A stretch of 64,000 nucleotides of DNA, taken from IMG/VR virus record IMGVR_UViG_3300043673_000084, positions 2,219-66,218 of that record. The stretch is one strand, 5' to 3'. The notes under the pieces are model-generated. The model saw only the letters and a program-made list of their open reading frames with translations. It had not been told where the DNA came from and ran no database searches. Source of the stretch: a virus (taxonomy: Duplodnaviria > Caudoviricetes). The position numbers and the translations under genes are program-made. Of this stretch, positions 5,709 through 63,743 are shown piece after piece (within the stretch, counting starts at the first letter, position 1; each line of letters opens with the position of its first letter).

Positions 5709-6011
5709 GTGGAAAAGACAAACTTCAACGGCAAAGAATTGCCGGAATTGGGCGCGGAGATGTTCGCGGTCAACGATTCCTCGGTCGGTAAGACGTTCAC
5801 GATAAGAGACGCCACCGATGAGCAATTGGTTCGATATCGCAAGGAATTCCAGAAGAACCACGCGCTGGCACAGCAAAAATTCATGGCGGCGCTTGGAGAA
5901 CTGCAGGACGCCAACACTGGCGTGAATATCATCATTTACGAAATCGACAGGCGCGCACGCATGCTCGCCATCGCATCGAATCTTCCGCCGAGTGGCCACC
6001 TTGCACGTTAG
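5709..6011 (+). CDS. Hypothetical protein
   Basis: ORF in the operon, coiled-coil-like. Confidence 0.5.
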   Translation: MEKTNFNGKELPELGAEMFAVNDSSVGKTFTIRDATDEQLVRYRKEFQKNHALAQQKFMAALGELQDANTGVNIIIYEIDRRARMLAIASNLPPSGHLAR

Positions 6012-6417
6012 AGACTTACCCAAGGATCTGCAGCGAGAACTGCTGAAGGGCGTGAAGATCCCCACGCTCAAGGCGGAGCCGAACGAGGGCGAGGATCTGT
6101 TTCGCTTCCATCTCAAGGCGCACAAGCTGCCGAAGTGGATGGAGCAACACAAATTCGCCACGTGCATGGGCAGGGAATTTATGGCGGACTTCGCCTTCAA
6201 GGATTTTCCGGTCCTGGTGGAGATCAACGGCGGGATCTGGCGCGAGGGCGGCGGCGCGCACTCGAGGCCGGAAAAAATCATCAAAGACATGGAGCGCTAT
6301 CGCTACGCGGCGCGGCTTGGCCTGTTCATCCTGCCTTTCACGCCGGATGAGGTCTTCAGCGGCCTTGCGATCGATTGGACGATGGAAACCTTACGACAAC
6401 ACGGCTGGAGACCTTGA
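5992..6417 (+). CDS. PD-(D/E)xK endonuclease (Vsr/DUF559-like, nin region)
   Basis: FMADFAF...VLVEINGGIW..GGAHSR....KDMERY..AARLG..ILPFT. Confidence 0.75.
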   Translation: MATLHVRDLPKDLQRELLKGVKIPTLKAEPNEGEDLFRFHLKAHKLPKWMEQHKFATCMGREFMADFAFKDFPVLVEINGGIWREGGGAHSRPEKIIKDMERYRYAARLGLFILPFTPDEVFSGLAIDWTMETLRQHGWRP

Positions 6418-37470: not shown

Positions 37471-38373
37471 ATGGGTACGATTACCAAGCCGACAGTGCGA
37501 GACGCCTGGGCGGACAATGCTATCCCGACGACGGACATCATTGATCCAGGTAATCCGTTTGTATCTGCAGGGTGGCCGTTGAGTTCGACGCCACCGGCTC
37601 GTCAGATCTTCAATTGGGTTCTGAACTACTGCATGAATGGCATACGCTATTTATGCCAGCGCGGCATCCCTGACTGGGATTCGACAGAGACTTACGCGAT
37701 CGGCGGCATCGCGATCGGCAGCGACGGCCAGGTGTATCAGTCGCTGGTCAACGGCAACACCAATCTCGCGCCGCCGACTTCCCCCGCTGCGTGGGGCCCT
37801 CTTAAGAACTACCTCACCGCTGGAGCGGCATCTGCGACATTCGAGACGATTAGCGATGCCGCGGCCAAACTGGCGCAAGCAGAGACCTTCGCTCAAAACG
37901 CCGCAAATGCTGCGCAGGGCGCCGCGCAGAACTTTGCGACGAACGCCGATGCTACGGTTTTGAGCGCTGCAGAGAGCTTCGCCTCGAATGCCGGAAACCT
38001 GACTTCGGGGACTTTGCCTGCGGCCAGGCTTCCATCTTCATTCTCAGTCAGCGGCACAATCGCTGCCAGCGCATTCGGCACCCCCTCTGACGAAAACCTG
38101 AAGGAAGGCATCGAGTCGATAGACGGCCCGCTGGATCGATTAGAGAAGATGCGCGGCGTGACTTTTACGTGGCGCAAAAACGGAGTGCGTGCGGCAGGCA
38201 CCATTGCGCAGGGCGTACAGAGCGCCATACCAGAAGGCGTCCATACCGACGATGATGGACATCTGATCGTTGATCCGATGGCCGTCGTGGGCGTTCTGAT
38301 TGAGGCGTTGAAAGAGGAGCGCCGCGATAGGGTCTCGCTCGAGGCTCGCTTGGCGGCGGTCGAGGCGCGCTGA
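37471..38373 (+). CDS. Short tail fibre with C-terminal intramolecular chaperone (peptidase S74-like)
   Basis: PPARQ.FNW...YLCQRGIPDWD..ETY baseplate anchor; PSDENLKE.I...RGVTFTW...G.IAQ.V. Confidence 0.8.
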   Translation: MGTITKPTVRDAWADNAIPTTDIIDPGNPFVSAGWPLSSTPPARQIFNWVLNYCMNGIRYLCQRGIPDWDSTETYAIGGIAIGSDGQVYQSLVNGNTNLAPPTSPAAWGPLKNYLTAGAASATFETISDAAAKLAQAETFAQNAANAAQGAAQNFATNADATVLSAAESFASNAGNLTSGTLPAARLPSSFSVSGTIAASAFGTPSDENLKEGIESIDGPLDRLEKMRGVTFTWRKNGVRAAGTIAQGVQSAIPEGVHTDDDGHLIVDPMAVVGVLIEALKEERRDRVSLEARLAAVEAR

Positions 38374-42885: not shown

Positions 42886-43917
42886 TCATTTCGCCCCCTC
42901 CAATACCTCGATGCGAATCACCAGGCGGCGCTTTCCGATCCATTTTGTCAGCGGCCGCTCGATCAGTCGGTGCACGGCCACTCCGACAGCCGCACTGACC
43001 ACCACTGCGGCCACCATGAACGCTACGGCTGAGAGCGCACCAATGTGCGGGAACAACTTGCTCCAAATCGTTCTCAGCAATCCCAAGGAGAACAGGTGTA
43101 CCAGGTATATAGAGTAGGAGGCATCGCCCAACAGGAGGAACAATGAACTCTTGTAGTCACGGAACGCAGGGTTAAGCACACCGATAATTATCAGGCAGCA
43201 CGCGGGTATCGACATCGCCAGGTCGAACCTGACACTCAAAATTCCCGCCCCAACAGCGACCATCAGCGCGGATGCCAATACGCTTTTGGGTATCCTGTCA
43301 GTCATGAACAAGTACCCTATGATGACTCCTGCGGCGAACTCGATGAGCATTGGATCAGTGTAGGTGATCAATACCGCATCAGTGAATGGCCCTGTAATGA
43401 CACCGACGACCACTAACCAAACCATAGTGACAATCAACGCCGCCAACCGATAGATCTTGGGGAGAAACAGGACCATGGCGAATATGCCGTAGAAGAACAT
43501 TTCATAGTTCAGCGTCCACCCCGGGATGATCAGCGGCCAGATATGGTCCGGGGATGTGATCGAGTATTGAGGGATGAACAACAGGCTCTTTACCAGCGCA
43601 CCTTCAGAGAATTTAAAGGTTCTAAACACGGTGGGAGCTACGACGCTGATGGCGGAAACAGCCAGGGTGACACCCCAGTACAGCGGGACTATCCTTATCG
43701 CCCTCTTTATCATGAACTGCTTCGGGGACACATCTCCCTTAAGCGCAGTAACCGCCATGATGAATCCGCTGATCAAGAAGAACAGTTCCACTCCCATGCC
43801 GCCAAGCGGGTAACTGCCGAGTACCTTACCGTACTGGTCGGGCAACTCCCAAAGGCCGTGGAACACCACGACCATCAGGGCCGCGATCGCGCGCAGATAT
43901 TGAATTGGCTTAATCAT
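42886..43917 (-). CDS. Acyltransferase-3 family membrane O-acyltransferase (ExoZ/OafA-like)
   Basis: IQYLRAIAALMVVVFH, GVELFFLISGFIM, KRAIRIVPLYW, GWTLNYEMFFY, LGDASYSIYLVH, IERP; start moved to ATG 43917. Confidence 0.92.
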   Translation of the reverse strand: MIKPIQYLRAIAALMVVVFHGLWELPDQYGKVLGSYPLGGMGVELFFLISGFIMAVTALKGDVSPKQFMIKRAIRIVPLYWGVTLAVSAISVVAPTVFRTFKFSEGALVKSLLFIPQYSITSPDHIWPLIIPGWTLNYEMFFYGIFAMVLFLPKIYRLAALIVTMVWLVVVGVITGPFTDAVLITYTDPMLIEFAAGVIIGYLFMTDRIPKSVLASALMVAVGAGILSVRFDLAMSIPACCLIIIGVLNPAFRDYKSSLFLLLGDASYSIYLVHLFSLGLLRTIWSKLFPHIGALSAVAFMVAAVVVSAAVGVAVHRLIERPLTKWIGKRRLVIRIEVLEGAK

Positions 43918-43984
43918 GATTTTCGTCCTTGAAGTGAATCCGTACCATCCTTCAGCGCAAGTGAGTCTAGCAAATATCTGCAGG

Positions 43985-44806
43985 TCACTTACGATTCTCC
44001 GGTAGCGTACCCGGGTAGTGGTTGGCAATGATCGCGTTGAGTTTGTCAACCAGGTCAGAGCGCAGAAACGTAATATGTCCATTACCATTCTTGAACCACT
44101 TCACGGACATATAGGCGTCCACGTGCTCGCCAGTGGGCTTCTGTCCATGCGCGGCGCGCATTCGTGATTCGATGCTGGTGCGGTGATCCTCTTCCGGCTT
44201 TCCATCGACGATGCAGAACACACGCTGCAAGTCCTGCAGGTCGTTCATGGCGCTGTAGTTGAAGCCACCCCATTTCTCAGCGAGATATCCCTTGATGATG
44301 CGCTTGCCAAACTTCACCGGGTTGTTGGTCTTGTAATCCCAACTCAGTTTTTTGAAGCAGTTGATTACGCCACGGTCGAACATGTCATTGCGACCGGCGT
44401 AGAGCGCGCCAAAACTGGCCTCGATGTTCTCGTGGGTCAGCGGCGGCGTTTTGCAGTCATTCACCTGGCCAGAGAATTCTGCTTTGGCCTTTGAATCCAT
44501 GAAGGACAACAGGCCAGAATCGTGCATGAGCTTTCCCCACAGCGCGGCGTCCAGGCGTTTGACTACCTCTTTTAGCCCATCCTCGGAAAGCAGCGGGTTC
44601 GTGTAGTGCTGGTGATTTCCTTGGATCACCCAGTCAAACTGCCGGTAGCTCTCGGTCAGTAGTCCGCCCTCGACGGTGATGCGGCGCGCTTCGGCCAGCG
44701 TGTGGACTACTTCGTGAAGCAGCTTGACCAGGCCATCGCGCTTGCGCAGCAGGCCTTCAATGCTGATGGACGATACGACGTCGCCGGCGTGCAGCTCGGC
44801 GCTCAT
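43985..44806 (-). CDS. DUF4942 domain protein
   Basis: ENIEASF..L...R.DMF.RGVIN.FKKLSWDYKTN.P.KFGKRII, KWFKNGNGHITF.R.DLVDKLN.IIA.HYPG.LP. Confidence 0.85.
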   Translation of the reverse strand: MSAELHAGDVVSSISIEGLLRKRDGLVKLLHEVVHTLAEARRITVEGGLLTESYRQFDWVIQGNHQHYTNPLLSEDGLKEVVKRLDAALWGKLMHDSGLLSFMDSKAKAEFSGQVNDCKTPPLTHENIEASFGALYAGRNDMFDRGVINCFKKLSWDYKTNNPVKFGKRIIKGYLAEKWGGFNYSAMNDLQDLQRVFCIVDGKPEEDHRTSIESRMRAAHGQKPTGEHVDAYMSVKWFKNGNGHITFLRSDLVDKLNAIIANHYPGTLPENRK

Positions 44807-48551: not shown

Positions 48552-49007
48552 TCATGGTCCGTCCAGATCCTTGTCGGTCACCAGCCTCGATACGGTCACA
48601 GTCCCATCGTCGTGCATCTGCCCCATGCGGAACATTGCGGTCAGAATCCCGGGTCCGGCGTGCGTACTGTGGCCACTGTTGTAGAGAACGGTGTATCCAC
48701 CGCCGAGTGTTTGAAACCAGCATGCATCGCCCTGGCTGACCAACCAGCGGCTGAAGTACTTGTGCATGCCGCGCGTGTCGGCCAGGGGAAGAGTGCAAGG
48801 CAAATCGGTGTACAGGACTTCCTGCAGTGCGGTCTGCTGGATCTTTTCAAAGTCGGCCGGATTGTGGCCAACCAGGTCAATGCGGACGAACACCAGGGCA
48901 TAGTGATCGGCGGCGGCGCGCGCGTGCTCAAACAGAAGCAGGAACGCAACGGCAACAAGAAAGCTGAGATAGATTTTTAGGAAAGTTCGGAGAGCGCGAT
49001 CTTTCAT
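48552..49007 (-). CDS. Exported/membrane-anchored hypothetical protein
   Basis: N-terminal hydrophobic helix ending HARAAA; ATGA overlap with int. Confidence 0.55.
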   Translation of the reverse strand: MKDRALRTFLKIYLSFLVAVAFLLLFEHARAAADHYALVFVRIDLVGHNPADFEKIQQTALQEVLYTDLPCTLPLADTRGMHKYFSRWLVSQGDACWFQTLGGGYTVLYNSGHSTHAGPGILTAMFRMGQMHDDGTVTVSRLVTDKDLDGP

Positions 49008-49999
49008 TTCTTCGCAACCAGGTGGCTGATATCCATGATGGTTGCCTCTTCAGGCTTGCGGCGGTAAACCCTCTGGGTGATCTCTGAATCGGAGTGCCCA
49101 GCCCGAATGCGTGCCGTCTCCAGATCTTCCGCATCGGACGTTGATTTTGCGCGGATGTCGTGAAACGTGAATGGAGTCTGAATCAGCCCCAGCTTCATGG
49201 CCTTGTTCATGGCTCGCTTCCATTGCGTCTGGAATCCGTCGCGCGTGTAGCGCTTGCCTTGTCGATTCGCGATTACGTATTGGCGGACCTGGGGGCCCAT
49301 GGCGAGAGCCGCCTGTACGGTTTCCTCGAGTGAACCTACGAACGGGTAATTGATCTTTTTCTTGGTCTTGCTTTGAATTATCTTCAGCTTGCCCGCTGCT
49401 ACCTGCTTTCGGTCCAGGCTTAAGATGTCCTTCTGTCGTGCGGCAGTGATCAGTTCAATATCCATGGCGAACTTGACCATCGGCGATGCCACGCCGCGCA
49501 CAGCAACGTATTCCTCGTCCTCTACGTATCGATCGCGCGGCTTGTTGAGAGGGAATCCGATCTTTAGAATCGGATTCTGTTTGATCACACCCTTTTTGCG
49601 CGCCCACGTCATCACAGCGGATAGGCCGCTGATGTTCTTGCGCGCGGTCCTTGTGCCCCCAAGCTTCTCAAAATAGTTCCAGGCGTGATGCGCCTCCAGA
49701 TCCTTCGGCAGCATGTGGCCAAAGACCGGGCGCAATTGCTTGAATTCTTTCTTGCGCGCAATGATTGTGTCTGGTGCCTGCTTATGCAGGACCTCGACTT
49801 CGTAGCTGGTCATCAGCGCGCCGATGGTCTCTTTGCCGATGGTTTCATGGAATCCTGCGTAGCGCTTCAGAGCGTCGCTGTAGTCGGATCCCAGGGGGTG
49901 CCACTTGTTATTGCGGTCAACAAAATAGAACGCGCCATGCTTCTGGTACATGCGCCGCGGCAGGTGCTTATCTGTTTTTCTGGTTCGCCCCACCGCCAT
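49004..49999 (-). CDS. int: Tyrosine integrase
   Basis: TAARQKDIL (R), KTKK, FTFHDIRAK (HxxR), AGHSD..IT.RVYRR (H, Y). Confidence 0.93.
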   Translation of the reverse strand: MAVGRTRKTDKHLPRRMYQKHGAFYFVDRNNKWHPLGSDYSDALKRYAGFHETIGKETIGALMTSYEVEVLHKQAPDTIIARKKEFKQLRPVFGHMLPKDLEAHHAWNYFEKLGGTRTARKNISGLSAVMTWARKKGVIKQNPILKIGFPLNKPRDRYVEDEEYVAVRGVASPMVKFAMDIELITAARQKDILSLDRKQVAAGKLKIIQSKTKKKINYPFVGSLEETVQAALAMGPQVRQYVIANRQGKRYTRDGFQTQWKRAMNKAMKLGLIQTPFTFHDIRAKSTSDAEDLETARIRAGHSDSEITQRVYRRKPEEATIMDISHLVAKK

Positions 50000-52518: not shown

Positions 52519-52740
52519 TCATACCTCTGGCTCCGTATAGACCATGTTCGCCACCACGCGCGCGATCGTCGGCTGCGTGACGCCGTAATCGAGCGCCAAC
52601 TCCAACTGCGTCGCCTCGCGGCGGAAATACCGGCGGCGAATCTCACGCGCCTTTTTCAAGTTGAGCCGGCGCGGCTTGCGAAATACCAGCCCGTCGCGAC
52701 TGCGCGATCGGTAGCTAAAATCAGGGACCGGGCGAGGCAT
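52519..52740 (-). CDS. Small HTH protein
   Basis: AREIRRRY....TQLELALDYGVTQPTIARVV. Confidence 0.6.
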   Translation of the reverse strand: MPRPVPDFSYRSRSRDGLVFRKPRRLNLKKAREIRRRYFRREATQLELALDYGVTQPTIARVVANMVYTEPEV

Positions 52741-54233
52741 TAGGCGACCTCTGCGACGGCGGCCTGCTCAACCACATTTGCGCGAACCAGGGCCTTGGCC
52801 TCGACAGGCGAAACCGAATTGCCGCACATATTGACCTGGGCGGTCTTGGTGAGCGGCTTGCCGTTGTACTCCGGGTCGATGATGTAGTCGTCATCGAATG
52901 ACTGAGCCCTGAAAAGTTCGCGGGGTTGCAGCATTCGCATGCCAATGTCGACGATGCGATACGACTCCCCATGGACGGTAACGAGGCCAAAGCGATCTTT
53001 TGTCGTTACGGTCCCGAGAGGCGAACCGAGTCGCGGGTCCTGTTCAGTGCCATAGTATTTCAGCAAGAAGGCACGGACCTCGCCGTAGTGCGTCCCGCTG
53101 GCTTGAATCGTGTGAATCGGCGCATCAACGGGCTGGCCATCCCGGCATGTTCCCTTGAGCTTGATCAGGTGCGATGTCACCAGCGCGTGATGATCCTGCG
53201 TCGTGATCGTATGCATCGGCTGCATCATCGGTGCGCCGTCGTTTTCGTGACCACCGTAGTGGCGGGCAAGGAAGGCGGCTACAAGCGCCCCTTGGCTCCC
53301 CGCGGCGGTGACCGTCGGATAGGGGGCCGAGATATTTCGCACGCGCGGCGCCTGCCCTGAGCGCTCGCCGTTGCGGGTGTTGATCAGCGTCGGCGCAATC
53401 AGTGCGAGCTCGCCGCGGTGCGCGCCCGTGATGGTCGGCAAAGGACTGTCGATTGATTGACCGCGGAATCCGCCCTGGTGAGTCAGGGGTACGATAAATG
53501 GCTTCGGATTGTTGACCACGTAGCGCATGATACCGCGCGCGATTCGGCGCAACGTCGCGTCCACCAGCGGTTTGGAACGCTCGAATATCGACGGACAGGG
53601 GATTGACCAGTCAATGCACTCGGCAGCAGTGCGATACGGAAGCAGCCCTGGGCCATGCGTTTCCTGTGGCCATATGATCGGTCTTCCATCGCAGCGAGCG
53701 ATGATGAATAGGCGTCGGCGCGTCGTCGGGGCGCCGTAGTCGCACGCGCTCATCTCGCGCATGTCGACGCGGTATCCTAAGTTCTCGAGCATCCTGTGCC
53801 AGCGGCGGAATGTGAATCCCTTGCGCATCGGGCACGGACTGCCGTCCTCGAGTAGCGGGCCCCAGGTCGCGAACTCGCTGACGTTCTCCAGCATGATCAC
53901 GCGCGGCCGCACCGCCTTGGCCCACCGAATGACGATCCAGGCCAGCCCACGGACGCGCTTTGAGACAGGCTTACCGCCTTTGGCGCGCGAGAAGTGCTTA
54001 CAGTCTGGGCTGAACCACGCGAGCCCTACGGGCTTTCCTCCAGTGACCTCCAGTGGGTCTACCTGCCAGACATCCTCGCAGTAATGCTTCGTGCGCGGAT
54101 GGTTTGCGGCATGCATCGCAATGGCTTCACGGTCGTGGTTGATCGCGAAGTCGATTGGGCGGCCCAGCGCGGCTTCAATCCCAAAACTTGCTCCGCCGCC
54201 ACCGGCAAAATTATCGACAGTCAGTTCAATCAC
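52740..54233 (-). CDS. DNA cytosine-5 methyltransferase
   Basis: DNFAGGGG (motif I), SPDCKHFS (IV), ENV (VI), YGAPT.R.RLF (VIII), CGNSV (X). Confidence 0.93.
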   Translation of the reverse strand: MIELTVDNFAGGGGASFGIEAALGRPIDFAINHDREAIAMHAANHPRTKHYCEDVWQVDPLEVTGGKPVGLAWFSPDCKHFSRAKGGKPVSKRVRGLAWIVIRWAKAVRPRVIMLENVSEFATWGPLLEDGSPCPMRKGFTFRRWHRMLENLGYRVDMREMSACDYGAPTTRRRLFIIARCDGRPIIWPQETHGPGLLPYRTAAECIDWSIPCPSIFERSKPLVDATLRRIARGIMRYVVNNPKPFIVPLTHQGGFRGQSIDSPLPTITGAHRGELALIAPTLINTRNGERSGQAPRVRNISAPYPTVTAAGSQGALVAAFLARHYGGHENDGAPMMQPMHTITTQDHHALVTSHLIKLKGTCRDGQPVDAPIHTIQASGTHYGEVRAFLLKYYGTEQDPRLGSPLGTVTTKDRFGLVTVHGESYRIVDIGMRMLQPRELFRAQSFDDDYIIDPEYNGKPLTKTAQVNMCGNSVSPVEAKALVRANVVEQAAVAEVA

Positions 54234-54568: not shown

Positions 54569-55387
54569 CTAGAACCGGCGTCCGGCGTACAGCTTGACGT
54601 CGGGTGCACCCTTGCGGATCTCGTCGGTGACGACCTTTACCGCAGCATTCCAGACTTCCAACGGGCGGATCAACTGATAGCCCATCTTCAGTTTCCCTTC
54701 CTCCATGCGGTAGCGGAAACGCGCCTCCAGCGCTTGCGGTGAGCCATCTACAAAGACAGGCATCTTCAGCGTGAAGCTTTGCGGAATGAGCAAGTCGCCG
54801 GCCTTCGTCTGGCCCTTGACCACTTCCTCGTATCTGAAATTGACCTGACCGTTGTCCAGGCGCACTTCGCTTTGGAATTCAGCGGACTTGTGGATCTGCA
54901 ATTGCAGGGCAACTTCCATGAACACCGCGCCGGGCGGGGAAACGATTTCCTTCAGATTCGTCTCGAGGAACGCGGCAAAAGCGACTTGCTCAAACCATTG
55001 TCCGTCTTTTTCGGTCCACGCTTTCCACTGCTCAGACTTCGGGCAGTTGTAAACGGCAAGGTGGTCCTGGGTTCCACGGCCGCCGGCATTCTCAGACCCG
55101 TGATAGTCCAGGACGGTTTCGTACTGGGCAGTCGGTTCATTGGCAAAAATCGTGGATTCATCGCTCTTGAATCGATTCACGTATTCGACGTAGGAGGGAA
55201 CATTGAGCAGTTCCACGCGCTGCTTTATGCGGTCAGGCGGCGGGAGAAACTTCGAAAGGTCCTCAACCTTCATGCCTTCAGGGATGATCCCGAACTTCTT
55301 TTCAGGAACTTGACCCTCCATGCCGACGTCCACGATGTGCGGCGTCCGGGTTGTATCGACAATTTTCTGAATCGTATCGGCGTCCAT
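54569..55387 (-). CDS. DUF2303 (YfdQ-like) protein
   Basis: SEQWKAW, Q..FAAFLE.N, RLDNGQV.F.Y.E, P.SF.L..PVF, ARFRYR. Confidence 0.85.
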   Translation of the reverse strand: MDADTIQKIVDTTRTPHIVDVGMEGQVPEKKFGIIPEGMKVEDLSKFLPPPDRIKQRVELLNVPSYVEYVNRFKSDESTIFANEPTAQYETVLDYHGSENAGGRGTQDHLAVYNCPKSEQWKAWTEKDGQWFEQVAFAAFLETNLKEIVSPPGAVFMEVALQLQIHKSAEFQSEVRLDNGQVNFRYEEVVKGQTKAGDLLIPQSFTLKMPVFVDGSPQALEARFRYRMEEGKLKMGYQLIRPLEVWNAAVKVVTDEIRKGAPDVKLYAGRRF

Positions 55388-55735
55388 TTACGCTGCGCTC
55401 CCTTCAACCATGATTTCGCCAGTGGATTTATCGACTGCGCCGAAGGGCAGTTGACTCTGCGCAGGGTCTTGGCGTGACAACCCATTGTCAGCAGTCGGGT
55501 AGAAGACGGTATCGCCACGATCCAGTTTCGGGATCTTCGTGTCGATGTCGTCTTCAATGGTGACGTATGTCACCACGCCACTTTTGGGCGGCTTGATTTT
55601 CAGCTTCAGCGTGAGAGTCGCCGGCTTGCCGGTTGACTTCACCGCCACCAGGGCCTTGGCGAGCTCATCGCCCAGGTCTTCCAGAGTGCGCCCCATGCGC
55701 AGATCCCGGAGGGTTTCAAAAAAGGGTCGTGCCAT
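55388..55735 (-). CDS. Partner of DUF2303 (YfdP-like)
   Basis: V..TGK..TLTLKLKIKP, FYPT.D.GL.R.DP.Q..L. Confidence 0.7.
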   Translation of the reverse strand: MARPFFETLRDLRMGRTLEDLGDELAKALVAVKSTGKPATLTLKLKIKPPKSGVVTYVTIEDDIDTKIPKLDRGDTVFYPTADNGLSRQDPAQSQLPFGAVDKSTGEIMVEGSAA

Positions 55736-56001
55736 TCAAATCTCCTGTTTATCGTCTGTGGGCGCGGCGGCTTCGACCACCGCAGTTTCGTTTGGACAGT
55801 TATTGCACCATTCGCCGGATGGCTCGCCATGCGGGCAAAGATTCGCGGCATCTTCAATGTGCAGCTTCGGCATGCATTGATATGTGCTGGCGGCATTTAC
55901 CACCGCGGCGACTCGTCCGAGACACAACACTTCTTCATCGCTCAATTCCATGACGAGTTGTGTTTTGTCGTCGCATCCTTGCAGTCGAATCAGGTGTTTT
56001 T

Positions 56002-56322
56002 TCATGCAGCTTCAACTCCACGCTTCAGCGCTCCAATCTTTCCCATGCCAATCAGGACGGTCCATGTTTCAAGGCATCCTTCGGCGTGGGCAAAGCGAAT
56101 TTGTTCTTTGGTGTAGCCCTCAAGATTCGCGCGGCCGTCGACAACCTCGTGGCAACAGAAGCACGCAAAGGCAACAATCAGGTCGTGCGGCTTGAGCGCC
56201 ATTCCGGCGCCGAGTCTCAAGCTGCGGTAGTGCGCGGGCACCGTGGTTCTCGGGTCGAAATTGCAGCACGGCAGGCGGATAGTGCAGCGCTGGCCTCGAG
56301 CGAGATTGGTAAGCCAACTCAT
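56002..56322 (-). CDS. DUF1364 (YbcO-like, HNH-related) protein
   Basis: ARGQRCTIRLP.CN.DP.TTV.AHYR....G...KPHD...AFAC..CHEVVDGR; ATG 56322 overlaps the RT stop. Confidence 0.85.
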   Translation of the reverse strand: MSWLTNLARGQRCTIRLPCCNFDPRTTVPAHYRSLRLGAGMALKPHDLIVAFACFCCHEVVDGRANLEGYTKEQIRFAHAEGCLETWTVLIGMGKIGALKRGVEAA

Positions 56323-57584
56323 GCGGCATCCTTGAGCGCGGCGCGCAGCCAAGGAAATCGCTTTCCGATGCCAGATCTAAGGCGGAAACTGTCAGCGTGA
56401 CTGAAATGTCCTGCGTAACTAGAGCAAACTGATTTCAGTTCATCCAGCGCGTCGATGTCACTAGTTACCTTCCCATCGATGACGTTCCGATTGCGCCATT
56501 CGGTGATCTTTGCGATGCAATGTCCTGATACTCGGCGGCGCACCACGGTATGGGTCGGATATACCACGTACCCAAGGAAGTCGATTCCAGCCGAGACCGG
56601 CTTTAGTTTTATGTCAGCCTTGAGCTCAAGCGACAGTTGATCGGCCAGAAATCTCTCGATCTCGATTCGCCACTGATTCAACTGATCTCGGTCTGAATGC
56701 AGCAGAACGAAATCATCCACGTATCTTAGGTAGCGCTTTACCGCCAATCGACGCTTGACGAACTGGTCCAATCGATCCAGGTATACGTTTGCAAAAAATT
56801 GGCTCGATAGATTGCCGATCGGGATACCGAATCCGGCCGGCGCGCGCTCCAGGCGCTTATGCTCTGGGATGGAAGCTAACTCTGCGGGAGTGCAGGCGTA
56901 TCTCACGCCATAAGCAACAGGCGATCGCTTCAGCAGCGCGTGGACGGCATGCTGACACTCTGGCGATACGCCAAAGCGCTCCATTTTTTCCTTGAGCATT
57001 CGATAAAGAATCGGCCGGCTGATCCGGTTGAAGAAATTCTTGATGTCAAGTTGCAGGAAATGCCCTGCACCGGTCTGCCGGACAAACTGTTGAAGTCTCC
57101 GGACGGCAGCGTGCGTTCCCTTGCCAATTCGGTTCGAATAGCTGTCGAAAATGAATGATTGCTCGTAAATTCGCTCCAGCTGCGGGACAAGCCAGTGGTG
57201 AACGACCCTATCGGAGAAGTCTGGCGCGTGAATTTCACGTGCCTTCGGCGCTTTTGCGACAAAGCAGGTTGTCGGACTCGGTTCCCAAGTGCCGGCCAGA
57301 AGAGACTTCTCAAGTTCAATCAGCCGGTCGATCCATTGATCATCGAAGGACAATTGATTCGGGCTTGGCTTCTTGCGTCGGTGAGCCCTACGCATAGCAG
57401 TGTGGAGGGCACGGAAACTCGGCGTTTGACTCTCACTGGCGCGGACCGCGCGGACACGATAGTCGTTGTTCTGGTTGTTCCAGTTCGTATTGCCATTGTT
57501 GAAATTGACTATCCACGCGTAATCGGCTGTTATCCCACGCACTTGAGACGCGGCCGCGCGGTCGGGCAGGCGCGGCGTTGTCAT
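56319..57584 (-). CDS. DGR reverse transcriptase
   Basis: PKAREIHAPDFSDRVVHH, DSYSNRIGKGTH, LQLDIKNFF, GIPIGNLSSQFFANVYL, RYVDDF, IDFLGY. Confidence 0.96.
   Translation of the reverse strand: MTTPRLPDRAAASQVRGITADYAWIVNFNNGNTNWNNQNNDYRVRAVRASESQTPSFRALHTAMRRAHRRKKPSPNQLSFDDQWIDRLIELEKSLLAGTWEPSPTTCFVAKAPKAREIHAPDFSDRVVHHWLVPQLERIYEQSFIFDSYSNRIGKGTHAAVRRLQQFVRQTGAGHFLQLDIKNFFNRISRPILYRMLKEKMERFGVSPECQHAVHALLKRSPVAYGVRYACTPAELASIPEHKRLERAPAGFGIPIGNLSSQFFANVYLDRLDQFVKRRLAVKRYLRYVDDFVLLHSDRDQLNQWRIEIERFLADQLSLELKADIKLKPVSAGIDFLGYVVYPTHTVVRRRVSGHCIAKITEWRNRNVIDGKVTSDIDALDELKSVCSSYAGHFSHADSFRLRSGIGKRFPWLRAALKDAA
57435..57529 (-). repeat. DGR template repeat (TR), 95 bp
   Basis: Reads ADYAWIVNFNNGNTNWNNQNNDYRVRAVRAS with 9 AAY codons and 28 adenines; differs from both VRs only at adenines. 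Confidence 0.96.
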
Positions 57585-58012
57585 GGTCTTGCCTCTGAGG
57601 CGGCATGGGAACTCAGAATCTCGGCACTCTGGAACGGCAATTGTTTTGCCGCTCCATTCTGGCCATTTGAACGCTGCTGCTTACGCCACCCTCCACACTG
57701 CTTGCCCAGGTCCGAGGCTAACTTCGCGAGCATTTCGAACTGCGCGAAACTCACGAAGGCCTCGATGTTCTTGCCGAGTTGTAGACTCAGCTTAAAATCG
57801 TCAACCGCCCATATCAGTTTGTCGGTCCATTGCGCCTGGTGCTTTCGATCCCTCCAGGCGCGATGAGCCAATTGCGCCACGCGCATTGCTTGTTCCCGGA
57901 GTCTGGCTCCATGCGAATATTTGTGATACCTCGTAAAGCGGCGAACCGCCTGCTCTATTTCAAGAAGCAAGCGCTCCGCATTTTTCACGATGGGCGGTAA
58001 GTCAAGACTCAT
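57581..58012 (-). CDS. avd: DGR accessory variability determinant (Avd-like four-helix bundle)
   Basis: F.RYHKYSHGARLRE, LGKQCGGWRK; lies between target and TR/RT. Confidence 0.88.
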   Translation of the reverse strand: MSLDLPPIVKNAERLLLEIEQAVRRFTRYHKYSHGARLREQAMRVAQLAHRAWRDRKHQAQWTDKLIWAVDDFKLSLQLGKNIEAFVSFAQFEMLAKLASDLGKQCGGWRKQQRSNGQNGAAKQLPFQSAEILSSHAASEARP

Positions 58013-58554
58013 CTAACGTTCCAAAAATCCGAATTTCCCTGACTGGCGCGGACCGCGCGGACACGATAGCCGTTGTCCTGGTCGTCCCAGAGCGCACCGC
58101 CATTGCCGAAATAGACTATCCACGCGGAATCGGCTGGGTTTGAATGGGCCGGAGTCGACGTCCAGTAGTACGTTGACTTGCACTCAAAGAAATCCGTGTC
58201 GATACACGGATCGTGGCGCTCATAGTCAACCAGCGTCAGCAATTCACGGATCGTCGGGAGTCGCCAATCTGAATGGCCGCCAACTCGAAGGTTGGCGCAG
58301 GCGTCCTTGGCCTTAGCCCAGTTCATCTCGCCAAGTGACTTCTGAGCCCATACGAGGCCGGTGGCGGAATCGCCAACCATTTCATCGCCAAGTTTCGAAA
58401 ACCGCGCATTGATCGCAATGCGCGGATTTACATCTATCCCGGGACTGTCACTCTCATTGCACAAAGTGCTTGTGATAGCGAATATTTCCCTTGGGGAAGC
58501 CTTTGCGATTCTCTGCGCGATCAATTCGCGCAGTTCATTGCCAAGTGTTTTCAC
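58009..58554 (-). CDS. DGR target 1: DUF1566 (Lcl C-terminal, C-type lectin fold) protein
   Basis: DSATGLVW, W.KA..AC..L..GG.SDWRLPTIRELLTLVD, YYWTST, AW.V.F..G, VRAVR. Confidence 0.92.
   Translation of the reverse strand: MKTLGNELRELIAQRIAKASPREIFAITSTLCNESDSPGIDVNPRIAINARFSKLGDEMVGDSATGLVWAQKSLGEMNWAKAKDACANLRVGGHSDWRLPTIRELLTLVDYERHDPCIDTDFFECKSTYYWTSTPAHSNPADSAWIVYFGNGGALWDDQDNGYRVRAVRASQGNSDFWNVR
58042..58136 (-). repeat. DGR variable repeat VR1
   Basis: 95-bp ungapped match to TR; 13 mismatches, all at TR adenines. Confidence 0.96.
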
Positions 58555-58579
58555 TTCGATCTCTCCCTAAAAACCTAAA

Positions 58580-58993
58580 TTACTGACTGGCGCGGACCGC
58601 GCGGACACGATAGCCGTCGTTCTGGGCGCCCCAGTCCGCACCGCCATCGTCGAAATCGACTAACCACGCGCAATCGGCTGGATACTTGGCGACCACTGTT
58701 CCAGTCCAATACCAATCGTTGTGGCAGTTCGGAAAGAATCCCTTGTCGATGGCAGGCTCGAACTTGGTTCGGTCTGCCAGCATGAAGAGCTCTTCAACGG
58801 TCGGCAGACGCCAATCTTTGAAGCCAGCCACTTCAGATCCGTTTGCGTGAGACTGAGCGGCAGCGAAATTCAGTTCTTCGGTCTCGCCGGCGTCCCAAAT
58901 AAGCCCCGTCGTGTTGTCGAGAACGGCTACCCATTCATTGGCGCCGTCATCCAATTTCGCGCCATCCTTTCCAATCTTCGTGAACCTATTCAT
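58580..58993 (-). CDS. DGR target 2: DUF1566 (C-type lectin fold) protein
   Basis: VLDNTTGLIW, GFKDWRLPTVEEL, WYWTGT, AW.V.F..G, VRAVRASQ*. Confidence 0.92.
   Translation of the reverse strand: MNRFTKIGKDGAKLDDGANEWVAVLDNTTGLIWDAGETEELNFAAAQSHANGSEVAGFKDWRLPTVEELFMLADRTKFEPAIDKGFFPNCHNDWYWTGTVVAKYPADCAWLVDFDDGGADWGAQNDGYRVRAVRASQ
58586..58680 (-). repeat. DGR variable repeat VR2
   Basis: 95-bp ungapped match to TR; 15 mismatches, all at TR adenines. Confidence 0.96.
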
Positions 58994-59011
58994 TTGTATC
59001 CTCTTGTTGAT

Positions 59012-59467
59012 TTAAGCGGCAGCGCCGTATTTTTCGTCGGCGTATCTCGAAACTTCGGCGGCCAGGTCGGACTGCGCCATGTCCAGGAGGCGGGCGCAGA
59101 TCGTCATCATTCCCCCCATGATTCGGCCAAACTCCACGTCATCCGGGATCGCGTCATAACTGAGGCTCCCAGGCATATTTTTGATCTCGCCATCCACGGT
59201 CGTGTATTCCCTGGTGTAGCCAGATTCCTCGGCGATGGCGTAGCGGAAATTGGTGAAGGTCATGAACTTCTTTTCCCAATGTTCCGGCAGGTTCGCCCAG
59301 GTCAGATTCAGCAGGGCCATGCAAAGTTTGTGGTGCTGGTAGTTGCGTGGCTTCACTACATCTGCGCGATAGACCTCACCGATCTTGTACTTGCGATGAA
59401 CGTCCTGGGACGCCTCGTCGGCGCATACAAAGCCGGTGAGAGTCTTGCGCAGATATAGTTGAGCCAT
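59012..59467 (-). CDS. DUF1367 family protein
   Basis: MAQLYL.KT...KIGEV..ADV.KPRN.QHHK..MALL, P.SLSY. Confidence 0.75.
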   Translation of the reverse strand: MAQLYLRKTLTGFVCADEASQDVHRKYKIGEVYRADVVKPRNYQHHKLCMALLNLTWANLPEHWEKKFMTFTNFRYAIAEESGYTREYTTVDGEIKNMPGSLSYDAIPDDVEFGRIMGGMMTICARLLDMAQSDLAAEVSRYADEKYGAAA

Positions 59468-59470
59468 GGA

Positions 59471-60784
59471 CTAGGCCGCTTCTTCGGTCGCGGCCTTCAC
59501 GCGCCCATCGGATATCACCAGCGCTGAATCGCTGTGCGCGAATACCGATTCCACCCACACCTGGCATTCGTTCTCGGCGGCCATCGCGGTCAGAAGCGCG
59601 AAGCTCTCCTGGTCCAGTAGTCCGCCATCGCGGATCCTGATGACCCGAAGCTTGCTGTTCGAGCGCATCGCTATGGCAATGCTGGCCTTCAGTTGCTCGG
59701 CGCTTGATGCCTGATCGAACGGCAGGCCATTCAGCGTTATGAACCCATCCCCAAACCCCAAGCCATCCACGGGCATTTCGGCGGCCGCAATGGCGTCGTT
59801 CTTCGCTTTGGTGCGGGCCTTGATGCTGGCGGACAATTCGTCGGACTTGAGGGCTGCATCGGTCGCAACCTTTTCCAGCGATGACTTTTTGCGGCGAGCC
59901 TCGGATGCGGTTCGGATGCGAGCGTTAAGCGCCTGGGTCTGCGTCAGTCCGGCGCGCAGCTCCTTGACGTCCTTCAGTGCCTCCAGGGGCGGGAGTGCCT
60001 GTACGGCCTCGCGTTGCTCATTCACCTGGCGATCCAGGGACAACGCAACGGTCTCCATTTGCTCGGCCTTGGCCCGAAGGTCAGCGGCTTCCTTGCGGCG
60101 TTCGTCGGCGGTCCTGACAAGGCGCGCGACGTCAGAGATGACGTTGTTTCGGCGGTTCAACTCCTTTTCGATGTCTGAATTGAACTGCGCGGCGCCGGCG
60201 ATATCGTCCAGCAGCTTGGATTCGTCGGTCTCGTCTTCCGGTAGATCTCCCGGAATTTCGATCAGACCGGCGGCGGCCTTCGCTTCCTCCATGCGCTTAT
60301 TCGCTTCGGCGCGGCGCTCAAAGTCGCCACGGTTCTGGTTATCGACCTTTTCAAAATCGATTCCAGGCACGAATCCGCGCAGCATGTCGAACTGTTCTTT
60401 CGGCTTCTTGCGGGAGAATTCCAGGGGGTCGAATGTCAGACTAGACAGCAGCGCATCCAGCATTGTCTGCGGGCTCTTGTAGCTCGAGCCGTCTGCCCCC
60501 TCGACCTTGACCGATGTCGTGAACTTGTCATCGCCCTGGCGCTTGAATGTGCGCGTGACGATCAACTCACCAAGGTCTAGCTTTATACTGGCCCTTTCTG
60601 CGCCGCGGCGGATCGGCTCGCTTTGGATGGTGCCGACACCGGCAAGGGCCCACCAGATGGCATCCAGGGTGCTGGTCTTGCCATTGGCGTTAGCACCACT
60701 GATTTCAATGACATCGCCCTCTGGTGTAATGTCCACGGCATAGAGCCGCTTCAGGTTTTCTGCTTCCAATCGTAGGATCTTCAC
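59471..60784 (-). CDS. SMC/AAA_23-like ATPase with coiled coil
   Basis: ISGANANGKTSTLDAI, QASSAEQL signature, IRDGGLLD. Confidence 0.88.
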   Translation of the reverse strand: MKILRLEAENLKRLYAVDITPEGDVIEISGANANGKTSTLDAIWWALAGVGTIQSEPIRRGAERASIKLDLGELIVTRTFKRQGDDKFTTSVKVEGADGSSYKSPQTMLDALLSSLTFDPLEFSRKKPKEQFDMLRGFVPGIDFEKVDNQNRGDFERRAEANKRMEEAKAAAGLIEIPGDLPEDETDESKLLDDIAGAAQFNSDIEKELNRRNNVISDVARLVRTADERRKEAADLRAKAEQMETVALSLDRQVNEQREAVQALPPLEALKDVKELRAGLTQTQALNARIRTASEARRKKSSLEKVATDAALKSDELSASIKARTKAKNDAIAAAEMPVDGLGFGDGFITLNGLPFDQASSAEQLKASIAIAMRSNSKLRVIRIRDGGLLDQESFALLTAMAAENECQVWVESVFAHSDSALVISDGRVKAATEEAA

Positions 60785-60974
60785 TTTTTGTTTTCCTTTG
60801 CTTTGATTGCGTCTGTGATGTAGCGCTGACCGGCGGCGGTGGCCGCCTGTGGGCTGATGAAGAAATTGCTCAGTTCTTCATCGTCAACGTAGGCGAGGAA
60901 GTCAGGGCCCATGAACCGCACCGCAATCAATCGATCGCGGTACAGTTCGGGCAGTCCCACAAGCGGCCGCTGGA

Positions 60975-62090
60975 TCATTTCTTTTCCTTCGCGGCCTTTG
61001 CGTCGCGCTGTTCGATGAATTCCTTGCGGTCGTGGAAGGTCGCTTCCAAGGAAATTGGAATCTCAACTGCCTTGAAGGCAACTGAGACCAGCTTCCACAG
61101 CAGCTTGAGCGCATCGATGGTCTCGGCTGACTTCAGCAACTCAATTGTTTGCGCCGGCGTCTGAACACGTATGCGCTCGATTTGCTTTAGATCATCGGTA
61201 TCGAAGTCCGGCTCCGCAGCCCTCGTCGCTGATTCGGCCTTATCCGCCGGCGGCTTGTCGTTGGCCTTCGGCGTGTCGGTCGGTTGCGCCTGGTCGGTGG
61301 ATTCGGACTGCGCCGGCGGCGGGATGAATGCGGCGTCAATGGCATCCTTCAGGTCGATGCTCTGACGATTCCCCATCTCGGACGTCTGATCAAGCATCAG
61401 CGCTGTCGCCAATTCAATGGACATTGGCATGTACTTGAGCACCTGGAGCAGCGGCACCTTGCGCCCGTACATTTCGAAATTGTTGTACGAGTAGTGCTTC
61501 TTCCCCACCTTGTTGTATTTGTTGCGGTGTCGGACGATCTTGCCAACTGGCCAGACTTCCATCACCGGGTACTCAGCACCCTTGACTCGACCAATCGCGT
61601 AGCAGTGCGTCAGCTTTTCTGGATCTTCATCCCCACCAGACGGCACGTGCTTGAGATACGGGCTGCTACCGAATTCGAATTCGAAGAAGTCTCCCTGGTA
61701 TACGGCGCCGGTCCAGACCGATGCGCGGCCGCTGCGGTTCACCAGGTCGCACAGGCCACGCCAGCCAGGAACAAACTGGCATTCGTCGCCATAGGGGACT
61801 AGATACGCCTGCCCCATGATCCCTGGCTCGAGTCCGAGTTGCGATCCAATGATGATTGACGCAAAGACGGACGCTGGGTGGCAGTCGGCCAGCTTCGGGT
61901 TTTGCCTGAAGCAAGTCAGTGCAATGCGCGCCATCCGATCCGGGTTGATGTGCTTCGGCAATGCCGCTGCGATTTGACCCTTGTACGCCTGGAGCATCTG
62001 CGGGAACGACTTCGGCTCATTTTTTGCTACTTGCTGGCCGGTCGCTGCTGCGCGAAGACGATCCCCTGTTGATTGTTGTGTTTCACTCAT
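60975..62090 (-). CDS. recT: RecT-family single-strand annealing protein
   Basis: IAAALPKHINPDRMARIALT, QLGLEP...GQAYLVPY, G..DLV.RSG, LKYMPMSIE. Confidence 0.92.
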   Translation of the reverse strand: MSETQQSTGDRLRAAATGQQVAKNEPKSFPQMLQAYKGQIAAALPKHINPDRMARIALTCFRQNPKLADCHPASVFASIIIGSQLGLEPGIMGQAYLVPYGDECQFVPGWRGLCDLVNRSGRASVWTGAVYQGDFFEFEFGSSPYLKHVPSGGDEDPEKLTHCYAIGRVKGAEYPVMEVWPVGKIVRHRNKYNKVGKKHYSYNNFEMYGRKVPLLQVLKYMPMSIELATALMLDQTSEMGNRQSIDLKDAIDAAFIPPPAQSESTDQAQPTDTPKANDKPPADKAESATRAAEPDFDTDDLKQIERIRVQTPAQTIELLKSAETIDALKLLWKLVSVAFKAVEIPISLEATFHDRKEFIEQRDAKAAKEKK

Positions 62091-62123: not shown

Positions 62124-62309
62124 TTACCCGATCTTGCGCGCCGGGTTTTCTGCGTCTTTGCGGGCTGCAACTTCCTCGCGATCCACTCGGATATGTTTCG
62201 GCGCATCGATTCCTACGCGTACTTGCCGCCCGTGCAGTCCAAGAATGCGAACCTCAATGTCGTTGCCGATCTTGATTGATTCCCCGATACGCCTAGTTAG
62301 TAAGAGCAA
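62124..62309 (-). CDS. csrA: Carbon storage regulator CsrA/RsmA homologue
   Basis: TTG start with AAGGA RBS: (M)LLLTRRIGESIKIGNDIEVRILG..GRQVRVGIDAPKHIRVDREEV. Confidence 0.9.
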   Translation of the reverse strand: MLLLTRRIGESIKIGNDIEVRILGLHGRQVRVGIDAPKHIRVDREEVAARKDAENPARKIG

Positions 62310-62784
62310 TTTGATGTTCCTTTTGCTTGAGTTTGGCGCGACCGTTGTTGGTGCGATTTCGCTCCACCTTGTCGCGCATGTTTTGCAAATGGGTACCAGG
62401 TGTAAGGTGACGCCCATTCATGCAAATGCCGTTGTCACAGGTATGGCGGATACACGTTCCGCGAACGTCTGAATTTGGAAGTTCTGGAATCGGACCATTC
62501 TGCAATTCGAATGCAAAGCGATGCGCGCTGACTACAGATCCGTCATCCAGATAAAAGAATCCGTAGAGTTGAGGATGATTGCCCCTTACGGTTCCGGTCC
62601 ACGGCCAGCATTGATCGGGTCGGAGCTTCTTCACGCATGACCAAAATCTTTCGACGTTTGTCATCTCACGGACTGTTTTTTCTGCTGGATCCCGGCCGCG
62701 ACTCCAGCGAGTCCAATGTTTAGAACAATAGCCACGCGCGCGGTGCGGCCTATTGCAACCGAGAATTGTGCAAGCCTTACTCAT
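62293..62784 (-). CDS. HNH endonuclease
   Basis: ERFWS.V, CWPWTG, AHRFAFEL, IRHTCDN.ICMN.RHL..GT..QNMRD. Confidence 0.88.
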   Translation of the reverse strand: MSKACTILGCNRPHRARGYCSKHWTRWSRGRDPAEKTVREMTNVERFWSCVKKLRPDQCWPWTGTVRGNHPQLYGFFYLDDGSVVSAHRFAFELQNGPIPELPNSDVRGTCIRHTCDNGICMNGRHLTPGTHLQNMRDKVERNRTNNGRAKLKQKEHQIALTN

Positions 62785-63743
62785 GGCTTGAAACTTTTGA
62801 CTTCGAACACTCGCGAACTGCCTTCGCGCATGTATTGCTTAAACAATTTCGGGTAGTCGGCCTTTAACGCGGCCTGGTCCAGATGCGCGTTCTTTCGCGC
62901 CTTCCACGTCGCCGCCGGCTTCTCCTGTCCGGGGATCTGGAGAATCGTCGCGGACTCCATATAGCGCTTGATCTGGAATTCCAGTACATCGCGCTCGGAT
63001 TCGCGCGCGGTGATCTCTGCCTCAACGGCTCGATAGCGCAGCAGCTTGTCAACCATGTCGGGCTCGGCGCGCGCAATGGTCTCTGCGTCAATCTTGAATA
63101 GGCGGTCAACGTCGGCCAGGTCGATGGGCTCCGGGGCGACGTTACGCAGCACGTACAGTTCCCAGAAATCGCGGGCCTGGGCGCGCATGCCTGCAATCGT
63201 GTCGTTGTCGCGCGATATCGGATAGATCTTGATTTCATCGGCGCCAAAGAGCGGCGCGACGATGCACAGATGGCGGCCGGTGATCCCCATACCCCATTGC
63301 GCCTGGGCGGCGTAGTGGATCGGGATCTCGTCGGTGAAGTCTTCACCCCACTCACGCGATGCGTTCGGGTGGACGGTTTTGAGTTCGACGTTGACGACAT
63401 CCGGGATATCGTCCAGCCGGATTTCGTAGTCGATCTCGGCGGCGAAGTAGGGGACATCAACATCGACATAGCGATGGTTGGCGCTCAAGACTTGAACCTT
63501 GTGTTCTTGGGCCTCGAGCTCAGCCACCAGCATTTCGCCGACGACGGCTTCCCAGACCTTGCCGCGCTGGAATAGCTTTTTCTTGCCAGGCCTCGGCGCG
63601 CGCGGCGGTTCGTTGCCTGTCTTCTTCTGCCAAACGCTGACGCGCGACTGCCACGGCGACACGCCCAGGACACCAGCGATATCAGCCCCGCCGATATAAA
63701 CCTTTCGGTCGATCTGACCTACGTCTTTGAGAATGGCGCTCAA
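62781..63743 (-). CDS. YqaJ/lambda-exonuclease-family protein
   Basis: IGGADIAGVLGVSPW, AEID, VELKT, IP.HY.AQ.QW.M.ITG. Confidence 0.9.
   Translation of the reverse strand: MSAILKDVGQIDRKVYIGGADIAGVLGVSPWQSRVSVWQKKTGNEPPRAPRPGKKKLFQRGKVWEAVVGEMLVAELEAQEHKVQVLSANHRYVDVDVPYFAAEIDYEIRLDDIPDVVNVELKTVHPNASREWGEDFTDEIPIHYAAQAQWGMGITGRHLCIVAPLFGADEIKIYPISRDNDTIAGMRAQARDFWELYVLRNVAPEPIDLADVDRLFKIDAETIARAEPDMVDKLLRYRAVEAEITARESERDVLEFQIKRYMESATILQIPGQEKPAATWKARKNAHLDQAALKADYPKLFKQYMREGSSRVFEVKSFKP

Follow-up and report, generated by a model that had tools for sequence, protein, structure and literature searches.

What does a phage gain from hypermutating two small proteins that it encodes away from its tail genes? 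The question is raised by a diversity-generating retroelement (DGR) in a temperate, 66-kb soil phage (Duplodnaviria; Caudoviricetes) known from IMG/VR record IMGVR_UViG_3300043673_000084, a single contig of 66,218 bp, of which we analysed bases 2219-66218; this stretch of 64,000 nucleotides is hereafter the window, and coordinates refer to it unless a genome position is specified. To our knowledge, prokaryotes and their viruses have no natural system of targeted protein hypermutation other than DGRs, and for phage DGRs we know of no tested role other than the switching of tail-fibre tropism. A first-pass annotation, made from the letters of the window, had proposed that this element diversifies a pair of intracellular binders early in infection, possibly as a heterodimer.

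By analogy with the DGR of Bordetella phage BPP-1, the reverse transcriptase (RT) and the accessory protein Avd would copy the RNA of a template repeat (TR) into cDNA, misreading adenines, and the mutated cDNA would replace two variable repeats, VR1 and VR2. These appear to encode the C-terminal binding face of two paralogous, small, soluble proteins with a C-type-lectin fold, T1 and T2, which in a structural model pair with their hypervariable hairpins meeting at the dimer axis. The heterodimer would act as a two-chain variable binder inside the infected cell, and its most likely ligands would be variable host proteins such as defence components. Taken as a whole, namely a complete and active DGR whose targets form a non-virion heterodimer that binds variable partners, probably host proteins, in the infected cell, this is the reading towards which we lean, at somewhat better than an even chance.

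A complete retroelement with adenine-specific variation

A repeat search recovered three 99-nt copies in register, with the minus strand as the coding strand: the TR and one VR towards the 3' end of each target gene (Table 1). In this register VR1 differs from the TR at 15 positions and VR2 at 17, of which 14 and 16, respectively, are TR adenines (hypergeometric P of 5e-8 for VR1 and 2e-9 for VR2). The sole remaining mismatch, a G>C at 57434, is common to both VRs and lies 3 nt from the 3' end; most VRs of the relatives described below likewise carry one non-adenine mismatch. The register returned by blastn, 95 nt long and ungapped, places 13 of 13 and 15 of 15 mismatches at TR adenines, which reproduces the 95-bp TR, the two VRs and the 28 adenine mismatches without indels of the first-pass annotation, as does our count of nine AAY codons in the TR. 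Elsewhere in the 66,218-bp genome we found no further TR-like copy and no third VR.

Of the 30 TR adenines, 28 occupy the first or second codon position in the VR frame, a stop codon is unreachable by any substitution at TR adenines, and approximately 10^16.7 peptide variants are theoretically reachable per target. In the region expected to serve the initiation of mutagenic homing, DNA folds of the VR 3' flanks gave no more than a GC stem of 5 bp, located in the shared region (z-scores of 0.53 and -0.62).

The RT finds its best match among PDB sequences in 8ub7_A (3.7e-40), titled in the Foldseek library 'Diversity-generating retroelement (DGR) ribonucleoprotein reverse transcriptase', compared with 8.4e-15 for the best group II intron RT. 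The YVDD and GNLSSQ motifs listed in the first-pass annotation are readily read in the open reading frame (ORF), and they align with those of the solved DGR RT, IGNLSSQ to IGSLTSQ and YVDD to YMDD.

The assignment of Avd comes from its predicted structure. The protein scores below threshold against the Pfam family bAvd (1.4e-5, 26 bits against a gathering score of 40), a search of PDB sequences returned nothing, and a profile search returned only 2gsc at an E-value of 0.64. The AlphaFold2 (AF2) model, built on 17 homologues, has four helices and a mean predicted local distance difference test (pLDDT) of 83, and in Foldseek it superposes on 2gsc (TMt 0.88) and on 4dwl_C, the Avd of the Bordetella phage (TMt 0.87, rmsd 1.8). 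The presence of Avd, which had been noted at the outset, is therefore supported by this four-helix model.

The TR is in frame within the open RT reading frame, which runs uninterrupted across the TR at all 17 loci examined. Homology to the solved DGR RT begins at residue 56, ahead of the internal Met63, and residues ~19-51 are the translated TR. A Shine-Dalgarno-like GAGG precedes ATG 57584 and none precedes ATG 57395, while in two of the related loci (L095 and L098) the only in-frame RT start lies upstream of the TR. Judged from these start sites and the shared frame, the RT may carry a TR-encoded pseudo-VR peptide at its N-terminus.

Turnover of the second variable repeat in nature

Two soil metagenome runs from two studies, X1 and X2, contain this DNA, and the runs listed for it include no RNA data set. 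The X2 strain is ~99% identical to the window and shows few differences over most of 55000-61000. An X2 contig over 58583-59251 carries 22 differences, 21 of them listed. The 12 listed differences inside VR2 all fall at TR-adenine positions, where adenines make up 30 of the 99 positions; of the nine outside VR2, elsewhere in T2, most affect third codon positions. This pattern is the expected trace of mutagenic retrohoming since the strains diverged, and it points to a DGR that is active now or was so recently. The first-pass annotation had named invariant VRs together with an inactive RT as an outcome that would undo its proposal; for VR2 this is contradicted by the second metagenome, which has no long contig over VR1.

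A separate X2 contig (depth 5.76) joins 58535 to 60447 with 26 unrelated letters between them. The join may come from a related genome without T2, NinB and some of the phrog_1499 gene, or the contig may be a metagenome chimera, as it was placed at 85% likeness.

Two small lectin-fold proteins

Both targets match the Pfam family Lcl_C (PF07603, the DUF1566 domain) far above its cut-off of 34.9 bits, T1 at 4.4e-33 (114.5 bits) and T2 at 1.2e-27 (96.9 bits), with the match spanning profile positions 2-117 of 117. They match no other Pfam family, and no Mtd-like domain was found by Pfam. Export was assessed by a crude hydropathy test, in which the maximum 19-residue Kyte-Doolittle mean is 0.46 for T1 and 0.51 for T2, the N-termini are charged, and none of 120 retrieved target homologues reaches 1.6. 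Among 71 longer homologues the Lcl_C domain alone is shared in 70; protein P0130 covers 95% of T1 at 32% identity, which we read as repeated domains. The description of the targets as stand-alone DUF1566 proteins of 181 and 137 aa that lack signal peptide, transmembrane segment and fibre stalk therefore holds by Pfam, by this simple test for export and by the 71 homologues.

The AF2 model of T1 (pLDDT 79) consists of an N-terminal helical hairpin (residues 4-33), a disordered linker (37-48) and the lectin-fold domain. Its best Foldseek match is 8q4e_A, the C-terminal domain of Legionella Lcl, followed by heterodimeric C-type-lectin-like proteins of snake venom. A T1 profile gave no match to PDB sequences, and an Atlas search with T1 residues 1-50 gave one match of 0.76, to an unnamed cluster, and no lead. 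Among cultured phages, tblastn of T1 matched only Xylella phage Xfas53.

A retained pair that is predicted to associate

The layout of short target, long target, avd, TR and RT recurs in 16 of 16 related loci, and in four cultured phages. Each of the 16 loci that have Avd together with an RT at least 50% identical to that of the window carries two to four VRs, 38 in total, with mismatches overwhelmingly at adenines; one further locus, L091, was left out of this survey as its contig ends before avd. Closer relatives, with RT identities of 55-68%, were found both in viral contigs and as prophages in Rhodanobacter, Lysobacter and other gammaproteobacterial genomes. The cultured phages are Pseudomonas phages Cruim01, LPPA56 and Haboob and Burkholderia phage Magia, with RTs 36-41% identical to that of the window; each has two adjacent short targets, Avd, TR and RT, placed in early or integrase-side regions. 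Their VRs show the same adenine specificity, with 12/12 and 13/14 mismatches at adenines in Cruim01, 14/15 and 14/15 in LPPA56, 13/14 and 17/17 in Haboob, and 8/8 and 11/11 in Magia.

The neighbourhood is conserved in kind. Our survey took in 130 of the 188 ORFs within 5 kb of the cassette at 17 loci, keeping same-strand ORFs of at least 100 aa and opposite-strand ORFs of at least 200 aa. The commonest neighbours by PHROG family are integrase (6), ParB-like (5) and DNA methyltransferase (3-4), and the 25 commonest neighbour families of these 130 ORFs include none of head or tail proteins. Such a survey of DGRs with the same synteny had been suggested with the first-pass annotation, and placement away from the tail genes, like the pairing of the targets, is by gene content a feature of the whole clade.

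The two targets are also distinguishable across the clade. The hairpin-bearing T1 type is present in 9 of 17 loci, and in all seven relatives with the hairpin on the avd-proximal target, a T2-type gene is followed by a T1-type gene with reciprocal best similarity, a typing that relies on tblastn and in which a few ORF limits are wrong. This order and similarity indicate, at the level of the sequences, that T1 and T2 are an old, retained pair.

Some relatives carry more than the pair. Extra or remote T2-like targets with A-mutated VRs occur in L084 (4580-5044), L086, L092 and L108; the extremes are up to four VRs in L108 and one VR 5.5 kb upstream in L084. In Magia (L004), the 'hypothetical' gene 46 (5861-6325), which adjoins target gene 47, contains a VR with 11 of 11 mismatches at adenines.

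The suggested heterodimer, for which a complex model had been proposed as a check, passed a controlled structure prediction. The T1-T2 model reaches an ipSAE of 0.63 (0.62, 0.63 and 0.65 in individual runs), compared with 0.01 for the best control; the mark applied to this score is reached by 58 of 80 solved complexes and by 2 of 110 mismatched pairs. The pLDDT of the partners does not fall below 92, and contacts agree to 91% or better. The modelled interface is pseudo-symmetric, T1 residues 102-117, 134-138, 145 and 151-156 facing T2 residues 65-81, 99-103, 110 and 116-121, and it juxtaposes the two variable hairpins. Outside the VRs, interface residues are conserved within each orthologue group and differ between the groups (R103, L106, V109, Y111, E112 and R113 in T1 against E67, F70, A73, R75, T76 and K77 in T2), which fits a specialised hetero-interface. 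The model thus supports the formation of a T1-T2 heterodimer.

Genomic setting

The gene map of the phage is lambda-like. A LexA-like repressor lies at genome positions 1762-2433 on the minus strand, and the plus strand carries, in rightward order, replication initiation, large terminase, portal, major head, sheath, tape measure, baseplate and tail fibre genes. The cassette is embedded in a single-strand run of minus-strand genes from 63743 to 52740 with short or overlapping gaps (Table 1): 18 nt separate NinB from T2 and 25 nt separate T2 from T1, and the genes overlap at T1/avd and at RT/YbcO. This agrees with the initial observation that the cassette lies on the strand opposite the structural genes, downstream of the recombination genes; a RecE-like exonuclease, RecT and NinB precede it.

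A weak consensus scan of the minus strand from 61777 to 53087 found nothing resembling a promoter or terminator, and an Rfam scan of 55500-59500 gave no match at E-values up to 0.1. If the ends of the contig join, the cassette would be part of the repressor-proximal leftward operon of a lambda-like map. The targets and the tail fibre gene are ~19 kb apart and on opposite strands, a placement unlike the tail-module position of Mtd-type targets, and Pfam finds in them nothing besides Lcl_C that could attach to a fibre.

Table 1 Features of the retroelement and of the surrounding minus-strand gene run (window coordinates)
Feature	Position	Strand	Description
RecE-like exonuclease	62781-63743	minus	upstream of the cassette
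HNH endonuclease	62293-62784	minus	upstream of the cassette
RecT	60975-62090	minus	upstream of the cassette
phrog_1499 protein	59471-60784	minus	upstream of the cassette
NinB/Orf	59012-59467	minus	directly upstream of T2
T2	58580-58993	minus	137 aa, stand-alone Lcl_C/DUF1566; ATG start, AGAGGA Shine-Dalgarno-like; phrog_16004
VR2	58583-58681	minus	3' end of T2; 16 A-site mismatches and the same G>C as VR1 against TR
T1	58009-58554	minus	181 aa; GTG start, GGGAGAG Shine-Dalgarno-like; stop overlaps avd start
VR1	58039-58137	minus	near 3' end of T1; 14 A-site mismatches and one G>C against TR
avd	57581-58012	minus	143 aa, predicted accessory four-helix-bundle protein
TR	57432-57530	minus	99 nt, 30 adenines, 9 AAY codons; within the open RT frame
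DGR RT ORF	56319-57584	minus	421 aa from ATG 57584; RVT_1 1.4e-18
YbcO nuclease	56002-56352	minus	overlaps end of RT
DUF2303	54569-55387	minus	downstream of RT
C5 DNA methyltransferase	52740-54233	minus	497 aa; downstream of the DGR
Integrase	49004-49999	minus	terminates the minus-strand run

Some neighbouring genes deserve mention in their own right. Homologues of the C5 methyltransferase, 32-45% identical, lie downstream of the cassette in L006, L007, L094 and L108. The tail fibre gene (37471-38373) is complete, with a C-terminal Peptidase_S74 intramolecular chaperone domain, and is followed by a gene (to 39203) for a 276-aa protein with a weak PKD-like match; neither of these is targeted by the DGR. 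A minus-strand gene at 42886-44088, placed between tail module and integrase, resembles O-acetyltransferases and O-antigen acetylases (phrog_3333, 1.9e-52) and is likely a lysogenic-conversion moron. A megablast search with the structural region of the phage gave no match.

Relation to known retroelements

The element shares with BPP-1 (mtd-avd-TR-brt) the order of target, avd, TR and RT, the RT (8ub7_A, its best PDB match), the fold of Avd, and adenine-specific substitutions in the C-terminal VR of a target with the C-type-lectin fold. Whereas BPP-1 has one target, the tail-fibre tip protein Mtd encoded in the late region, the window has two small Lcl_C proteins in an early recombination-integrase run; it also differs in that the TR is in frame within the RT ORF and that no clear hairpin follows the VRs.

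Like the window in its layout of two targets is Burkholderia cenocepacia phage Magia (MT701587), a temperate myophage whose RT is 37% identical and which encodes, on one strand, a nuclease, RecT, an ATPase, two short lectin-fold targets, Avd, RT and integrase. Unlike in the window, its targets are 120 and 154 aa long, unmatched by T1 in tblastn, and a terminator is annotated before the cassette. The announcement of this genome (Microbiol Resour Announc 2021, PMC7883833) describes a DGR with targets in 'relatively short reading frames', genes 47 and 57, and assigns them no function in the parts of its text drawn on here. The paper on Cruim01 contains no occurrence of 'DGR', 'retron' or 'reverse transcriptase', and our literature searches found no study of the function of DUF1566 DGR targets encoded in early operons of Pseudomonas, Burkholderia or soil phages.

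In the classification of Wu et al. 2018 (PMC5758913), as excerpted, DUF1566 targets form category 'd' (CLec2), about half of them short proteins of DUF1566 only, and 13% of DGRs have two targets. An example of this category, Legionella LdtA, resembles T1 and T2 in carrying its VR in a DUF1566-type lectin fold, yet it is a surface lipoprotein, whereas T1 and T2 have no export signal by the hydropathy test and lie in a phage early operon. Quimbyvirus, a Bacteroides gut phage, offers a parallel in placement (PMC8008677): one of its DGR targets is encoded away from the structural module, on the other strand and with methyltransferase and nuclease genes around it, and was read by Benler et al. 2021, in the passages concerned, as non-structural and conflict-related. 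That phage differs in having one structural and one non-structural target and a frameshifted RT, whereas in the window both targets are non-structural, adjacent and paralogous.

These precedents temper part of the first-pass interpretation. A complete two-target DGR with stand-alone, signal-less targets in a leftward early operon was borne out, but the novelty it implied was overstated: short DUF1566-only targets and two-target cassettes are already in Wu et al. 2018, a non-structural target is in Benler et al. 2021, as far as the excerpts of both go, and the same layout is present in published phage genomes. The element belongs to an already catalogued, functionally unexplored DGR subgroup.

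Outside DGRs, the snaclecs and CD94-NKG2 rank just below Lcl in the fold search and form pseudo-symmetric two-chain lectin-fold dimers like the modelled T1-T2 pair; the likeness is structural only, at 9-14% identity.

Weighing the alternatives

Several observations weigh against a heterodimeric, intracellular binder. Since heterodimeric lectin-like complexes have been solved and dominate the Foldseek list, the complex prediction may have passed through memory of such structures, and the resemblance to snaclecs and CD94-NKG2 may itself explain the confidence of the model. The prediction does not separate a heterodimer from a homodimer, its calibration holds only roughly because self-made alignments were used, and the parts of the interface at T1 151-156 and T2 116-121 coincide with variable positions, which fits uneasily with a fixed interface. 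The evidence of turnover is from VR2, as long X2 contigs are missing over VR1 (58069-58249) and over most of the TR; moreover, X1 may be the source sample of the window, and both runs are soil metagenomes of 2025. The words 'early' and 'intracellular' follow from gene position and from the missing export signals of the hydropathy test. The link from repressor to operon runs across the contig ends, whose joining is conjectural, the contig having no terminal repeat, and the terminator annotated just upstream of the first target in Magia suggests that the cassette may be its own transcription unit. Finally, most characterised phage DGR targets are receptor-binding, as the literature consulted in part has it, the nearest solved fold is an adhesin domain, and the N-terminal hairpin of T1 could dock onto a part of the virion.

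One could speculate further in the opposite direction, that T1 and T2 are an obligate heterodimer, an antibody-like receptor in which the two DGR-written hairpins build a single combinatorial site that captures fast-changing host defence proteins inside the infected cell and so provides adaptive viral counter-immunity. We regard this stronger version as a minority possibility.

A virion role for the targets would fit what is recorded of other phages. According to Roux 2021, in the portions used, viral DGR targets are mostly tail-like with the remainder unassigned, and most characterised phage targets are receptor-binding; two further two-target phage DGRs, those of the tentaclins (PMC10743442) and of the Toutatisvirus hotspot, have likewise been read as receptor-binding in the excerpts at hand. 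On this account T1 and T2 would be virion-associated adhesins encoded off the tail module, with the conserved hairpin of T1 docking onto the fibre or baseplate and the DGR switching host range as in BPP-1. Tail proteins make up the characterised phage DGR targets and most of the predicted ones (PMC10743442, in part), the Lcl adhesin domain is the nearest solved fold, and phrog_4245, a profile of 583 positions, matches the target domain at its C-terminus. Against these stand the ~19 kb between cassette and tail fibre gene, the opposite strand and the surrounding recombination-integrase run, as well as the non-structural neighbourhood in 17 loci with no head or tail family among the top 25; the phage has a complete tail fibre with its own Peptidase_S74 domain, and no fusion of a fibre to the lectin domain was found among the 71 longer homologues. 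We think an adhesin rather unlikely.

The occurrence of the same cassette in prophages of Rhodanobacter, Lysobacter and other Gammaproteobacteria, beside methyltransferase, ParB-like and integrase genes, raises the thought of a module that benefits the lysogen: a variable intracellular sensor or blocker, expressed from the prophage and directed at superinfecting phages or mobile elements. DGR-based immunity has been proposed in print for cellular DGRs (PMC10053308, as far as excerpted). Yet the scan gave the genes no promoter-like site to themselves, and they lie in a leftward operon that looks to be under repressor control, so that the cassette should be silent in a lysogen, and the binders are accompanied by no effector domain. 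We consider this explanation unlikely.

That the cassette is an evolutionary remnant, its adenine pattern left by past activity and its proteins without current variable function, is very improbable and largely refuted, for although one genome by itself is no proof of current activity, the VRs are followed by no strong hairpin and Avd falls under the Pfam gathering threshold, the 12 of 12 listed VR2 differences at TR adenines separate strains that are ~99% identical, all ORFs are intact, the RT motifs align with those of a solved DGR RT and the TR retains its nine AAY codons.

Implications

The contribution of the window is not a new kind of element but evidence of natural VR turnover together with a specific prediction of a heterodimer. 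In the clade to which it belongs, both targets are encoded among early genes that are not structural and are kept as a conserved pair of one short and one long protein, which may heterodimerise. Because cultured Pseudomonas and Burkholderia phages share the layout, what the pair does is a directly testable question. If T1 and T2 are indeed intracellular binders, phages would own a diversifying tool for counter-defence or for the capture of host proteins.

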